Part shown: one piece after another, positions 11,887 through 31,115 of the stretch
Layout: each line of letters begins with the position of its first letter
Position numbering within the stretch: the stretch's first letter is position 1
Assembly: GCA_003599145.1 (NCBI GenBank)
Contig: QZIT01000005.1
Location: forward strand, 127,961-191,960
Reading direction: 5' to 3'
Origin: Candidatus Woesearchaeota archaeon
GTDB lineage: Archaea > Nanobdellota > Nanobdellia > Woesearchaeales > UBA9642
Length of the DNA stretch: 64,000 bases
Made by a program: the position numbers and the translations under genes
Notes under the pieces: model-generated
What the model was told of the DNA's origin: nothing
What the model saw: the letters and a program-made list of their open reading frames with translations, nothing else
The model's database searches: none

Positions 11887-12459
11887 CTAGCGACTTTGTT
11901 TAAGTGAATCCAGCGCTGCTTTAGCTTGGCCTGTACATAACGTAAACAAGCTATCTTGAGCAGAAGTAATGCTTGAAGAATGCGTTACGCTTGTTTTTGT
12001 ATATATGGGCAAATCAGATGCATCGTAAACAAATTCTGCGCCATAATCAGGTTTTAAATCAACATCTGCATCAATAATCCAATCCATATATACTAAGGAA
12101 TCAACCTGCTTATATCCTATCACGCTTAAGAAGGGTTTTGGAGCTTCTGTAACAATATCAATATGTACACCGTCATATTTTAAAATTCCTCTCGTGTCAA
12201 TTTTAAAAGCATAAGGCCCTGTGCGCTCTAAAAGAGCAACCATGTCCACGCTATACTCATTAAAAATTTTCTGAGAAAGACTGTCTATTGTTGGATTTGC
12301 AACAAAAAGCGTTTCTGCCTGCGGCTGGATTTTTTGCACTGTTGCAGCAAGATCATAATAGTTTACATTGCCATCTTTAGGCGTTGAAGAATTTCCTTGA
12401 GAAACATTTGCTGCTAAACCAACCAATGCAGCTATACCAAACCATGTTGCGGTTTTCAT
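11887..12459 (-). CDS. hypothetical secreted protein
   Basis: N-terminal signal peptide MKTATWFGIAALVGLAANV; no domain recognised. Confidence 0.5.
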   Translation of the reverse strand: MKTATWFGIAALVGLAANVSQGNSSTPKDGNVNYYDLAATVQKIQPQAETLFVANPTIDSLSQKIFNEYSVDMVALLERTGPYAFKIDTRGILKYDGVHIDIVTEAPKPFLSVIGYKQVDSLVYMDWIIDADVDLKPDYGAEFVYDASDLPIYTKTSVTHSSSITSAQDSLFTLCTGQAKAALDSLKQSR

Positions 12460-12530: not shown

Positions 12531-12887
12531 TTATGACTGCATTGCACGAGAAGGAAGAGTTGCAACATAGTCTTTTATTTTATTGCTCCCATACATAACG
12601 GTCGCATGATGCCAATTGCCTTGTGCAGCAATGCTTGTCCACGTCATTTTTAAGCCAGTTCTGCAAACATAATAGAACCCCTGTCTCCAAGTAACTAAAG
12701 GCTCATATCTTCTATGGCCTAATAATTCCTCTTTTGAAATATTTCCTGCATTGCAAAGTTGTTCAACGGCAGTATCAAGAGTTAAACCTGATTGATGAAC
12801 AAGCACATTAACCGTTCCTGCAATATGGTTCATCTCTTTATCAGTCATGCGCGGCTTAACAGATGTGCGATGCTTGGATGGCGCCAT
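12531..12887 (-). CDS. hypothetical protein
   Basis: 118-aa ORF, no motif recognised. Confidence 0.4.
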   Translation of the reverse strand: MAPSKHRTSVKPRMTDKEMNHIAGTVNVLVHQSGLTLDTAVEQLCNAGNISKEELLGHRRYEPLVTWRQGFYYVCRTGLKMTWTSIAAQGNWHHATVMYGSNKIKDYVATLPSRAMQS

Positions 12888-13139
12888 AGTGAGAGAACTG
12901 TTTAAACTTATTTAAAGTTTCTTAATACTACCTCAAACTCATAACAAATTACAGCAAGGTTTATATACCTCCTGAACTTAAAGAGCTTATGGGTGATGTC
13001 ATGGGTTATTTTCAAACCCTGTCCAAGGATAAATTAATGGCGTGGATTGCCGTTGTCATTGGATTTTTGCTGATAATTATTGCCCTCTTGATTTGGTAAA
13101 AAACCAAAGGTTTATATAGGAAAACAGGTAAAGATTACT

Positions 13140-13337
13140 ATGGGCCAACAAGAAGTGTATGATTTTTTGTGCAAGCACAAAGGCAAGTGGTATACGAGCA
13201 GGGAAATTTCTGAAAAACTCGGCGTTTCTATCGGTAGCGTTACTATGTCCTTAAAAAAATTAAGAAAAACCAATATTATCAAATACAAAAACACTGGTAA
13301 GAGAAACACCTTTAAGTATAAAGTGGATAGGCGTTAA
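13140..13337 (+). CDS. small winged-helix DNA-binding protein
   Basis: 65 aa; YTSREISEKLGVSIGSVTMSLKKL resembles HTH recognition helix region of small archaeal wHTH regulators. Confidence 0.5.
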   Translation: MGQQEVYDFLCKHKGKWYTSREISEKLGVSIGSVTMSLKKLRKTNIIKYKNTGKRNTFKYKVDRR

Positions 13338-13531
13338 ATTTCTTCTTCCTCTTCTTCCTTCACTTTCTTGACACTTTTACGACGAGTGTTTTCTGAGTCT
13401 TCATCGTAGCCTTTCAAAAAGGCATCTTCTCGGTCATCTATTTCGTCATCTTCTCTTAAGTCATCAACATCTTCACTGTCGTAATAGTCTTCTTCTTTTT
13501 CCGCCATGGTGCTGTTAGTTTTCAAAATCAT
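13334..13531 (-). CDS. small highly acidic protein ending in a poly-Glu tail (KEEEEEEI)
   Basis: 57-65 aa (alternative start MAEKEE); about 50% D/E, no Cys, predicted disordered; lies 37 nt downstream of the ATP-grasp-like gene on the same strand. Confidence 0.45.
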   Translation of the reverse strand: MILKTNSTMAEKEEDYYDSEDVDDLREDDEIDDREDAFLKGYDEDSENTRRKSVKKVKEEEEEEI

Positions 13532-13568
13532 TTATATAGTTTTCGCATTGATAATATATACTGAGAAT

Positions 13569-14927
13569 CTACAACGTGCTTTTTGCTTCTTTGATTTTTT
13601 GCTCTAGTTTTTCTGGAGTAAGGGAAGATAGAGTAATCATTCTTTTTCTTGGAATGCACCCTTCTTGCCATGAAAGGACCCAAGGATGCAATCTTGCTCC
13701 GTAATGAAGCGTTGACATTCCCTCCATAGCATCATAAACATAGATAGGAAGTCTTTTGCTGATAATTGCAATTTCAGGTTGTTGCAGCAAAATCATTTTT
13801 TTATAGGTTTTCAAACTTATATCTCCTAAAAAATCATAGTGAGACATACGGAGAATACCCATACCATCGTCAAATCCCCACCATTGTGGCTCGTACATTG
13901 CCCATCCATCAAATTCTCTATCTAAAACAGCATTTCTTTCGTCTGTTTGATCAGGAGATCCGCCCTGCCCGCCTCTGACGTTTGATAAATTAAAAACGTA
14001 AGGCTTTTGCAAAAGATCAGACATAGCAAATGTTCCCTTTGCTCTCCCAACGATTTCAGAAAATAATTTTTTAGAGTGTGCTTCTAAAACATCAGCCATT
14101 GCATCTGACACTGGTTTTTGAACAGCAGGATTTCTTGTTGAAGCAACATTCACTTTGAGCGTAGTGTCTGGGTCGTCTCTATTAATAGGAAATGATGAAA
14201 CTCTCGCGTAGGTTGCTAAAGGAACTAACGTTGGAATACCATTTTTCATACCTACAAAGAATACAGACCTATAAATGCCTGCGTATTCTTGGCCATTGCA
14301 TCTAAACGGCTCGGGTTCAATAAATGCTTCATAAAAATAGTTATTCCTTGGCTGGCCCTTAACAGATCTATTTTTTGGATTTTCTAAATGCTCTTTTGCT
14401 GAAAGAATATGCACTGTTGTTCCTGCAGCGCCATATGATTTTTTTCCGACAACAAGTGTATCAGAAGGGAGCGTTTCTGGGTTCACAAGTTGTGGCATGT
14501 AATCAGAAAACAAATCGTGAGTCAATCGTTTTTCATCTGCAATAACCGTTAAGTGATGTGCAAAAGGTACAGGCACATTGTCAAAGGAAGACCATGTTTG
14601 CATCAAAGTATCAAGGCTGACAAAATTATTAAATCCTCCTGAAACGGTTCCAAAATCAAATCCAGCATCCCGTATCGCAATATGTTTTAGGATGCTTCCA
14701 GGATAAGACTCCAGTTCAAGCAACACAGGTTTCCGTGTTTCTTTTTGCACGATATAATCAAAACTGATGACCATAGGAGAAGGCGTTGCTCCATATGCTT
14801 CATCTTTTGGCAATCCAAATGTTTTTAGAAATCTATTCACGGTTAAACCATCAAATCCTCTAAAACCGTTGGTGACGTAATCTTCGCTTAAAACAGCATC
14901 AGCTAGTGATTGATAAGCAGGATCCAT
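13569..14927 (-). CDS. hypothetical protein with possible ATP-grasp-like ligase core
   Basis: Segments VVGKKSYGAAGTTVHIL (Gly-rich loop after Lys), FYEAFIEPE (compare QEYI), RSVFFVG and FNLSNVRGG resemble the RimK-type ATP-grasp motif order. Alignment is by eye only. Confidence 0.4.
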   Translation of the reverse strand: MDPAYQSLADAVLSEDYVTNGFRGFDGLTVNRFLKTFGLPKDEAYGATPSPMVISFDYIVQKETRKPVLLELESYPGSILKHIAIRDAGFDFGTVSGGFNNFVSLDTLMQTWSSFDNVPVPFAHHLTVIADEKRLTHDLFSDYMPQLVNPETLPSDTLVVGKKSYGAAGTTVHILSAKEHLENPKNRSVKGQPRNNYFYEAFIEPEPFRCNGQEYAGIYRSVFFVGMKNGIPTLVPLATYARVSSFPINRDDPDTTLKVNVASTRNPAVQKPVSDAMADVLEAHSKKLFSEIVGRAKGTFAMSDLLQKPYVFNLSNVRGGQGGSPDQTDERNAVLDREFDGWAMYEPQWWGFDDGMGILRMSHYDFLGDISLKTYKKMILLQQPEIAIISKRLPIYVYDAMEGMSTLHYGARLHPWVLSWQEGCIPRKRMITLSSLTPEKLEQKIKEAKSTL

Positions 14928-30647: not shown

Positions 30648-31115
30648 TTGCATTATAATGCTTATAGCGAGCACATATTTTTTAAAGCCGAAAGAGATTT
30701 TGAAACAATGCAAGGCCAATTTACTTTTGAAAACAACGACCCTGATTTAGAAAGAATAATCAAAGCGCTTCCTATCAAAGCACACTTGAATGCAGATGAT
30801 GTTGAAGCAGACATTAAAGCAACAGTTATGCAATACCGTATAGAGCAAGATTCCAATGATCCAACAGAATACGCAATCATTCCTGTCAGAACAGCCAATG
30901 TTCCTGGAATTATCAGATACAGCTATATGCCTGCGTTAGATGCACAGAACGAGTTTCAGTATGTTGAATCATCGCCTGGGGAAGTGTACGTTTCATTTCG
31001 CGGCATGAAATTCGTATTAATTTATAATATCTATGTTGACATTGACTCCCTGACAGATAATTCTAGATCAGACTTTGATACTGATGACTCTGATTTAGGC
31101 GATGACGACATATAA
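30648..31115 (+). CDS. hypothetical protein with poly-Asp C-terminus
   Basis: 155 aa (possible start at MQGQFTF); ends DFDTDDSDLGDDDI. Confidence 0.4.
   Translation: MHYNAYSEHIFFKAERDFETMQGQFTFENNDPDLERIIKALPIKAHLNADDVEADIKATVMQYRIEQDSNDPTEYAIIPVRTANVPGIIRYSYMPALDAQNEFQYVESSPGEVYVSFRGMKFVLIYNIYVDIDSLTDNSRSDFDTDDSDLGDDDI

Follow-up and report, generated by a model that had tools for sequence, protein, structure and literature searches.

This study concerns three neighboring genes in a 64,000-nucleotide stretch of contig QZIT01000005.1 (hereafter, the window), taken from a metagenome-assembled genome of Candidatus Woesearchaeota. One encodes a 452-residue ATP-grasp-like protein, the second a tiny acidic protein with a poly-Glu tail, and the third a basic, 65-residue winged helix-turn-helix (wHTH) protein; a fourth, very small open reading frame (ORF) just upstream of the wHTH gene encodes a predicted membrane peptide. 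The ORF listing of the window contains all three principal genes, and their coordinates and internal features are collected in Table 1. The original prediction, made from the sequence alone, read the first two genes as a carrier-protein or tail-modification module, with the larger protein resembling RimK/LysX-type ATP-grasp ligases.

The 452-residue gene and the acidic gene lie on the same strand, separated by 37 nt, or by 61 nt if the acidic gene begins at its likely ATG at 13507. The wHTH gene converges on the acidic gene, as originally described, and the two stop codons share a TTAA palindrome (13334–13337). To call promoters, we used a TATA test that accepts a TATA-like 8-mer centered 22–32 nt upstream of the ATG; such an 8-mer is present at 23 of 62 long window ORFs (37%) versus 1.2% of random positions. 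The 452-residue gene, the wHTH gene, and the second ATG of the acidic gene (13507) are positive in this test, and the first ATG of the acidic gene is negative. Because the TATA box stands at the right distance for 13507 only, and because homologues of the acidic protein all start with M-A/T-K/E, the second ATG is most likely the real start, which would give a protein of 57 residues. Its mRNA is most likely leaderless and transcribed from the gene's own promoter. With a TATA box of its own, the acidic gene does not require co-transcription with the 452-residue gene.

Table 1. Genes, promoter elements, and protein segments (window coordinates unless a locus is named)
Feature	Coordinates	Strand	Remarks
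452-residue ATP-grasp-like protein	13569..14927	-	NCBI RJQ16911.1, C4573_02515; annotated "hypothetical protein"
TATA-like box TTTATAAA	14949..14956	-	Center ~26 nt upstream of the 452-residue gene's ATG; from sequence and enrichment test
N-terminal beta-hairpin, residues 52–77 (ISFDYIVQKETRKPVLLELESYPG)	14697..14774	-	Candidate Mg-binding D57...E71-x-E73...P76; block pLDDT 93–94
ATP-binding Lys strand and Gly-rich loop, residues 158–176 (LVVGKKSYGAAGTTVHILS)	14400..14456	-	K162 invariant
Hinge motif, residues 197–208 (YFYEAFIEPEPF)	14304..14339	-	E200 invariant; aligns to RimK VQEYI
Long beta-hairpin with invariant R220 and R242, then invariant N260 (KVNVAS) motif	14142..14291	-	Aligns to RimK DIRCLVVG, FRSNLHRGG
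C-terminal region, residues 300–452: FNLSNVRGG string and alpha/beta domain	13572..14030	-	Probably an accessory region
Small acidic protein, 57 residues, MAEKEED...KEEEEEEI	13334..13507	-	Mechanical ORF extends to 13531 (65 residues)
BRE-like (transcription factor B recognition element) GCGAAAAC and TATA box TATATAAA	13531..13546	-	Center ~27 nt upstream of ATG 13507; BRE read by eye
Conserved acidic-family core LREDDEIDDREDAFLKGY, residues 17–34 of the 57-residue form	13406..13459	-	Defining feature across 69 clusters
C-terminal tail KEEEEEEI	13337..13360	-	Variable in family
Basic wHTH protein, 65 residues	13140..13337	+	RJQ16909.1; Pfam HTH_24, E = 8.7e-6, above gathering score; own TATA box
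Predicted membrane peptide, 36 residues (MGDVMGYFQTLSKDKLMAWIAVVIGFLLIIIALLIW)	12989..13099	+	Just upstream of wHTH gene; TATA box
Neighbor protein of 452-residue homologues, 310–327 residues	L001 6337-7269; L005 4016-4951; L034 8940-9923	-; +; -	

Fold and motif order of the 452-residue protein

The 452-residue protein belongs to a very small family. It matched nothing in Pfam, NCBIfam, PADLOC, PHROGs, or PDB sequences, and with nothing in PADLOC or PHROGs for either this protein or the acidic one, a defense or phage origin of the two has no support. When 1.84 billion representatives were searched exhaustively with HMMER, only 8 family members were recovered, each a singleton cluster; the other members are 26–39% identical to the window protein. 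A word-indexed homologue search returned the protein itself and, with a profile, one further member, and a metagenome scan with the three closest members returned no relative. The genomic context of one member, P0005, holds a sigma-54 activator gene, and the family is therefore not confined to archaea.

Comparisons with described ATP-grasp families stayed below significance. The best family-wide Pfam matches, to tubulin–tyrosine ligase (TTL; E = 0.021) and ATPgrasp_ST (E = 0.025), involve two members each and fall below the gathering cut-offs, and the family profile aligns weakly (E = 1.7) to a biotin-carboxylase-type chain (7kc7), with the match lying precisely over the Lys loop and hinge. 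With hhalign, all alignments to the RimK/LysX alignment, to human glutathione synthetase (GS) alone, and to a four-sequence GS family were non-significant (E = 0.08–0.19); the value for RimK/LysX was E = 0.14 with a probability below 1%, and the GS-alone alignment was spurious. The reference sequences used here are 100% identical to 5zct_A (RimK) and 2hgs_A (human GS). No sequence test reached membership in the RimK, LysX, or TTL families.

Structure prediction adds a second line of evidence. An AlphaFold2 model built from the 8 family sequences has a predicted local distance difference test (pLDDT) score of 78.9 and a predicted template modeling score of 0.84; the single-sequence model (pLDDT 31) was useless. 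A Foldseek search of the family-based model returned no PDB match at E ≤ 1e-3; the PDB list is headed by glutathione synthetases, YjfC, biotin carboxylase, PurK, LysX, and TTLL11, and in the BFVD list the leading entries are TTL-family and ATP-grasp proteins of giant viruses (best E = 1.5e-3, probability 1.0). Five residues—K162, E200, R220, R242, and N260—are invariant in all family members covering those positions, and the hhalign register with RimK equates K162 with K141, E200-x-F-I with Q177-E-Y-I, R220 with R189, and N260 with N213. Because the AlphaFold2/Foldseek neighbors, the sub-threshold sequence signals, and these invariant residues agree, the predicted structure supports a very divergent ATP-grasp fold, which clasps the nucleotide between two alpha+beta domains.

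The four strings singled out by the original prediction do occur in the protein in the order given: VVGKKSYGAAGTTVHIL (residues 159–175), FYEAFIE (198–204), R220-SVFFVG, and FNLSNVRGG (312–320). The RimK/LysX-like assignment built on them survives in part, for the fold and for three of the four motifs, which are in register with RimK K141, Q177-E-Y-I, and R189; membership in RimK, LysX, or TTL finds no support. The Lys/Gly-rich loop aligns with LVVKLVEGTQGIG of RimK, with the biotin-carboxylase-type VLLKASAGGGGRG of 7kc7, and with the glutathione synthetase VLKPQREGGGNN loop (GS K364), and the hinge (197–208) is comparable to ILMEKIEPEPF of human GS (residues 396–406). K162 and E200 thereby match two hallmarks of the superfamily, a phosphate-binding Lys on a beta-strand ahead of a flexible Gly-rich loop and an E-x-[FY]-[IV] hinge. 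FNLSNVRGG, proposed as the fourth ATP-grasp motif, lacks the acidic residues of E-x-N and is not conserved: The classical Mg position reads D304...N313-L-S315 in the window protein and varies among members (FNLS, FTYS, FLYT).

A candidate Mg site lies near the N terminus, in a beta-hairpin with the sequence pattern FDY-x11-LLE-L-E-xx-P. Its D57-x13-E71-x-E/N73-x2-P76 signature is kept in P0001–P0006, with the canonical E-M-N in P0005 (IEMN..P) and E-I-N in P0006, and the best local hhalign match pairs residues 60–77 with RimK 249–266 (PLVMEVNASPG; E = 0.076). We then de-permuted the family sequences by joining the hairpin behind the central domain. In this form, P0006 matched Pfam ATPgrasp_YheCD across the junction (E = 3.5e-4) and TTL on the hairpin (E = 3.5e-3), and the de-permuted profile aligned across the junction to the ATP-grasp kinase ITPK1 (E about 0.7). 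The chains of P0005 (321 residues) and P0008 (346 residues), both complete though short, stop once the N260 helix is finished, and neither has the classical strands. In human GS, the motifs follow one another in the same order—RSDYMF...QIE144-I-N146, then VLK364PQREGGGNN, then ILMEKIEPEPF—and Glu144 of GS is described as a residue of the Mg- and ATP-binding site (PMC10106969).

A literature search on circularly permuted ATP-grasp proteins yielded nothing directly usable. From the conservation of the hairpin, the de-permutation matches, the ends of the short members, and the motif order of GS, we infer that the Mg-binding triad probably sits in the N-terminal hairpin by circular permutation and that the protein probably has a permuted, GS-like architecture followed by a C-terminal accessory region. 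The elements would then run from the Mg-binding hairpin through the Lys and Gly-rich loop, hinge, Arg residues, and Asn to the accessory region. The predicted fold and the conserved nucleotide-, phosphate-, and metal-binding residues make a ligase the most likely role: The rare family would comprise ATP- and Mg-dependent carboxylate–amine ligases that form an acyl-phosphate intermediate and probably act on a small molecule or peptide.

A non-catalytic family, in which pseudo-enzymes or nucleotide-binding scaffolds have lost the classical E-x-N (N313-L-S315 here) and the hairpin is unrelated to catalysis, appears unlikely to us. Such a family would fit the variable, acid-free classical position, the sub-threshold scores of every Pfam ATP-grasp model, and the fact that the hairpin was placed from sequence and not in three dimensions. 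Against it stand the five residues that remain invariant despite about 26–39% pairwise identity; combined with D57, E71, and E/N73 of P0001–P0006, they complete the set that an active permuted ATP-grasp should have. The short members also keep the hairpin though they are entirely without the classical region.

The family also differs from each system it recalls. To eukaryotic-type glutathione synthetase and to the glutathionylspermidine synthetase (GspS)/YgiC/YjfC group it has no significant sequence similarity (hhalign E = 0.085); the GS substrate-binding domain is unrecognizable, and most members add a C-terminal region of ~150 residues. GspS and 3n6x are presumably permuted ATP-grasps as well. 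Unlike RimK, LysX, and ArgX, the 452-residue protein has no Pfam RimK (PF08443) match, does not carry its Mg motif at the classical C-terminal position, and has no conserved partner. With respect to TTL/TTLL (PF03133), the window protein has no Pfam match and two members reach E ≥ 0.021, below the gathering score; the E-x-N position is N-L-S and not conserved, no tubulin-like substrate is present here, and outside this genome there is no link to an acidic-tail protein.

The acidic protein and its family

In the small ORF, which lies on the strand of the ATP-grasp-like gene, Asp and Glu make up 41.5% of the 65-residue form and 47.4% of the 57-residue form, against the roughly 50% originally given; it contains no Cys and ends in KEEEEEEI, as originally described. 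None of the 174 window ORFs of at least 50 residues surpasses it in acidity. A gap in accessions between RJQ16909 and RJQ16911 suggests that it was annotated as C4573_02510.

Homologues of 58–62 residues, 41–54% identical to the window protein, occur in five loci fetched through the wHTH gene (L010–L013, L015). A profile search extended the family to at least 69 clusters (E 2.7e-23 to 9.4e-3; 43–107 residues, 53–75 in 66 of the 69), all unnamed or "hypothetical," and a scan of the GTDB species-genome collection found it at 12 loci, most labeled Woesearchaeota or Nanoarchaeota. Members share the consensus LRDxDEIxDxEEAFMxGY(D/E), and the window protein (LREDDEIDDREDAFLKGYDE) fits the pattern [DE]L[RLV][DE]xD[ED][ILV]xxx[ED]EAF[LIM]xGY[DE] within 50–90 residues. 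In a six-sequence alignment, L17, R18, D21, I23, D25, E27, A29, F30, G33, and Y34 are invariant; several of these vary in wider homologues. The AFMxGY core had no match in Pfam, NCBIfam, PADLOC, or PHROGs and none in the full-text literature (searched as AFMKGY and AFMEGY). The usual context of the gene is a housekeeping neighborhood, ThyA ... HTH_45 ... ThrRS (threonyl-tRNA synthetase).

These data bear directly on whether the ORF is merely a spurious reading frame in a spacer, a refuting condition that the original prediction had itself named. Neither exact form, of 65 or 57 residues, is present in a 15-billion-protein collection, and the composition is low-complexity. The invariant core nevertheless recurs in homologues across the 69 clusters, from genomes of 31–49% GC, and the gene has a TATA box at the right distance and a gap in accessions and locus tags that suggests annotation. 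We rejected a spurious origin on conservation and give it a negligible probability.

The acidic ORF is a genuine gene, and its poly-Glu/Ile tail is not the defining feature of the family. Most family tails read EEEEEEK-x-EDEFDI, and relatives encode such a tail themselves; others end in EEF, EDFE, a basic stretch, or a fused CPxC...CPxC zinc ribbon, or have no tail. The closest homologue, P0093, ends in ...SSKGDGRHA, without poly-Glu. Some members, such as L023 3944–4213 (+) and L032 402–671 (+), have a zinc ribbon (CPNCGE...CPVCRQD) fused to the C-terminus, and others carry a basic KKSRRSKRK stretch; the AFMxGY core is therefore combined with differing C-terminal modules.

Most likely, the acidic protein binds a basic protein, as its partner or as its chaperone. 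The short amphipathic segment LRDxDEIxDxEEAFMxGY, set in a low-complexity acidic chain, would bind the probably basic partner, and the poly-Glu and Ile tail would be a variable, genome-encoded extension, neither product nor target of the neighboring enzyme. The eukaryotic DSS1/Sem1 proteins offer an analogy: They are small, disordered, acidic binding proteins, similar in size (about 55–70 residues), in acidity, and in having one or two short hydrophobic or aromatic motifs. The comparison is one of analogy only, and no sequence relationship is claimed.

Gene pairing across genomes

If the enzyme and the acidic protein formed a conserved pair, a point that the original prediction proposed to check in related genomes, the two genes should recur together. 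They do not: An acidic or AFMxGY-motif ORF was found in 0 of 11 loci of six other enzyme-family members (L001–L009, L034, L035), and a relative of the 452-residue enzyme was found by tblastn in 0 of 24 acidic-gene or wHTH loci. Because of these two results and because each gene has its own TATA box, the adjacency in the window is most simply specific to this genome and incidental.

What recurs beside 452-residue homologues is an uncharacterized protein of 310–327 residues (31–58% identity), adjoining or near in L001, L005, and L034. Loci L005 and L034 also have a HAD_2 hydrolase and a 315–325-residue HTH_24 protein in common. None of these three genes is present in the window. The ~310-residue protein had no Pfam or PDB match; a Nudix-like box seen in it by eye was unconfirmed and was dropped. 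Its context is probably the true functional neighborhood of the family. At the closest homologue (L001 3337–6368, +), the ATP-grasp-like gene follows genes for NAD synthase, an NMNAT-like CTP_transf_like protein, and a LigD_N phosphoesterase on the same strand, at junctions that either overlap by 4–10 nt or leave a 34-nt gap; a gene for NAD kinase is close by. This arrangement, absent from the other loci, may be an operon context.

These results leave little room for an enzyme–substrate or carrier pair in which the enzyme ligates an amino acid or amine to the poly-Glu/Ile tail, or extends it. We consider such a pair very improbable, and give the same low standing to a version in which a permuted ATP-grasp ligase was recruited beside the acidic protein and glutamylates its tail or joins an amine to the tail carboxylate. 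Among the loci examined, the pairing is limited to this genome; the acidic family, with at least 69 clusters, is far wider than the enzyme family, with 8 singletons; poly-Glu and a terminal Ile are genome-encoded in relatives that lack the enzyme; and the acidic gene is served by a promoter of its own. The variable tail and the tail-less closest homologue likewise count against the carrier or tail-modification module first proposed.

Comparison with the carrier-protein systems leads in the same direction. LysW has an N-terminal Zn-ribbon with Cys pairs and an acidic tail ending in Glu, and it is encoded in a Lys/Arg biosynthesis cluster. The acidic protein here is Cys-free and ends in Ile; set against the RimK, LysX, and ArgX systems with their partners S6 and LysW, it shows neither a Zn ribbon nor an EDWGE-type end, its gene belongs to no biosynthetic cluster, and no lysine or arginine biosynthesis genes lie near it.

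Taken together, we favor three independently transcribed genes and one tiny membrane ORF, with no module, as the likely explanation of the locus. Several points weigh against this reading and against the permuted architecture within it. Sequence links to ATP-grasp families are weak (the hhalign, Pfam, and Foldseek PDB results above), and the model rests on 8 sequences only. The active-site placement of the hairpin follows from sequence logic, and the hhalign alignment to the GS family placed the central motifs and not the hairpin, which was not set on GS residues 125–146. A second, TTL-like D...KPYxFNLS element occupies the classical position and is unexplained. With regard to pairing, the 452-residue homologues provide only about six independent contexts, mostly on short contigs; the structural neighbors include enzymes that act on acidic C-termini; and the enzyme and acidic genes do adjoin on the same strand, which leaves a lineage-specific functional link conceivable.

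The wHTH gene, remaining features, and biological meaning

The third gene is the most conserved of the locus. Its cluster at ≥90% identity has 68 members, and full-length identity to eight relatives (L010–L017) is 82–92%, with 91–92% in seven of the eight; two of the alignments span 63 residues at 94% identity. The relatives' genomes have local GC contents of 31–49%, and neighboring proteins are by contrast about 40–55% identical. Because its conservation is far above that of its neighbors, the wHTH protein looks less like a local regulator than like a core chromatin or general factor; it would be an exceptionally conserved, basic DNA-binding protein of the lineage.

Similar ORFs to that of the upstream membrane peptide, of 44–48 residues with the motif YF..L..D...AW.V..G and a hydrophobic tail, precede the wHTH gene in five loci (L010 4378–4512, L011 4717–4851, L012 4639–4785, L013 4699–4845, L015 2272–2406), and L017 has a similar reading frame upstream of its wHTH gene (upstream of 7868). 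The predicted single-pass membrane micro-ORF and the wHTH gene look like a conserved pair.

A different pairing would join the acidic protein to the convergent basic wHTH protein—as partner, chaperone, or DNA-mimicking antagonist—and leave the ATP-grasp gene a bystander. The two genes are convergent within about 0–4.5 kb in the window and in L010–L013, L015, and L017, although the genes between them differ among the window, L017, and the remaining loci; their stop codons overlap in the window; and the charges are complementary (17 K+R in the 65-residue wHTH protein versus 27 D+E in the 57-residue acidic protein). The link nevertheless breaks in both directions: L014 and L016 have the wHTH gene without an acidic gene within 5 kb, and 14 acidic-gene loci in L018–L033 (12 with a recognizable acidic ORF) have no wHTH gene within 4–5 kb. 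It may be residual synteny of one subclade, in the ThyA...ThrRS neighborhood. As the pairing is read from gene context and the interaction is putative, we judge it unlikely and retain the reading of independently transcribed genes.

The neighboring genes are thermosome, AlaX, proteasome beta, and aCPSF1-like genes. In this archaeal genome, the 118-residue product of 12531–12887 (−) scores above the gathering cut-off of Pfam Bac_DnaA_C (E = 4.8e-10), the model for the C-terminal HTH domain of bacterial DnaA; within the protein collection, it is the sole member of its cluster. Between its gene and AlaX sits the gene of a 190-residue protein (11887–12459, −) with an N-terminal signal or transmembrane-like segment and no family match, also a singleton cluster. 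An unannotated-looking ORF of 135–155 residues (30648–31115, +), next to ribosomal protein S19e, has a C-terminus of acidic residues followed by Ile (DTDDSDLGDDDI), a type of tail that no other window ORF has apart from the acidic gene. An identification of the 155-residue ORF, which ends in GDDDI, as aIF1A was rejected: It has no such annotation and adjoins S19e.

An archaeal tail-tagging or carrier module would, if true, add a new kind of system for modifying proteins, and tail modification of the acidic protein would amount to a TTL/RimK-like system in DPANN archaea; the comparative data argue against the module. The 452-residue enzyme represents a new, rare family in a known superfamily, in which permuted ATP-grasps are already known; with its ~310-residue neighbor elsewhere, the family may mark an undescribed small-molecule ligation pathway. 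The acidic proteins form a DPANN-specific small family with a sharply conserved AFMxGY core, and the 65-residue wHTH protein, which is paired with a tiny membrane peptide, may serve Woesearchaeota as a core factor in chromatin or regulation. Both the acidic family and the wHTH–membrane peptide pair are undescribed and not mechanistically surprising. None of the three families opens a long-standing question; all three would be sensible choices for the annotation of DPANN "dark matter."

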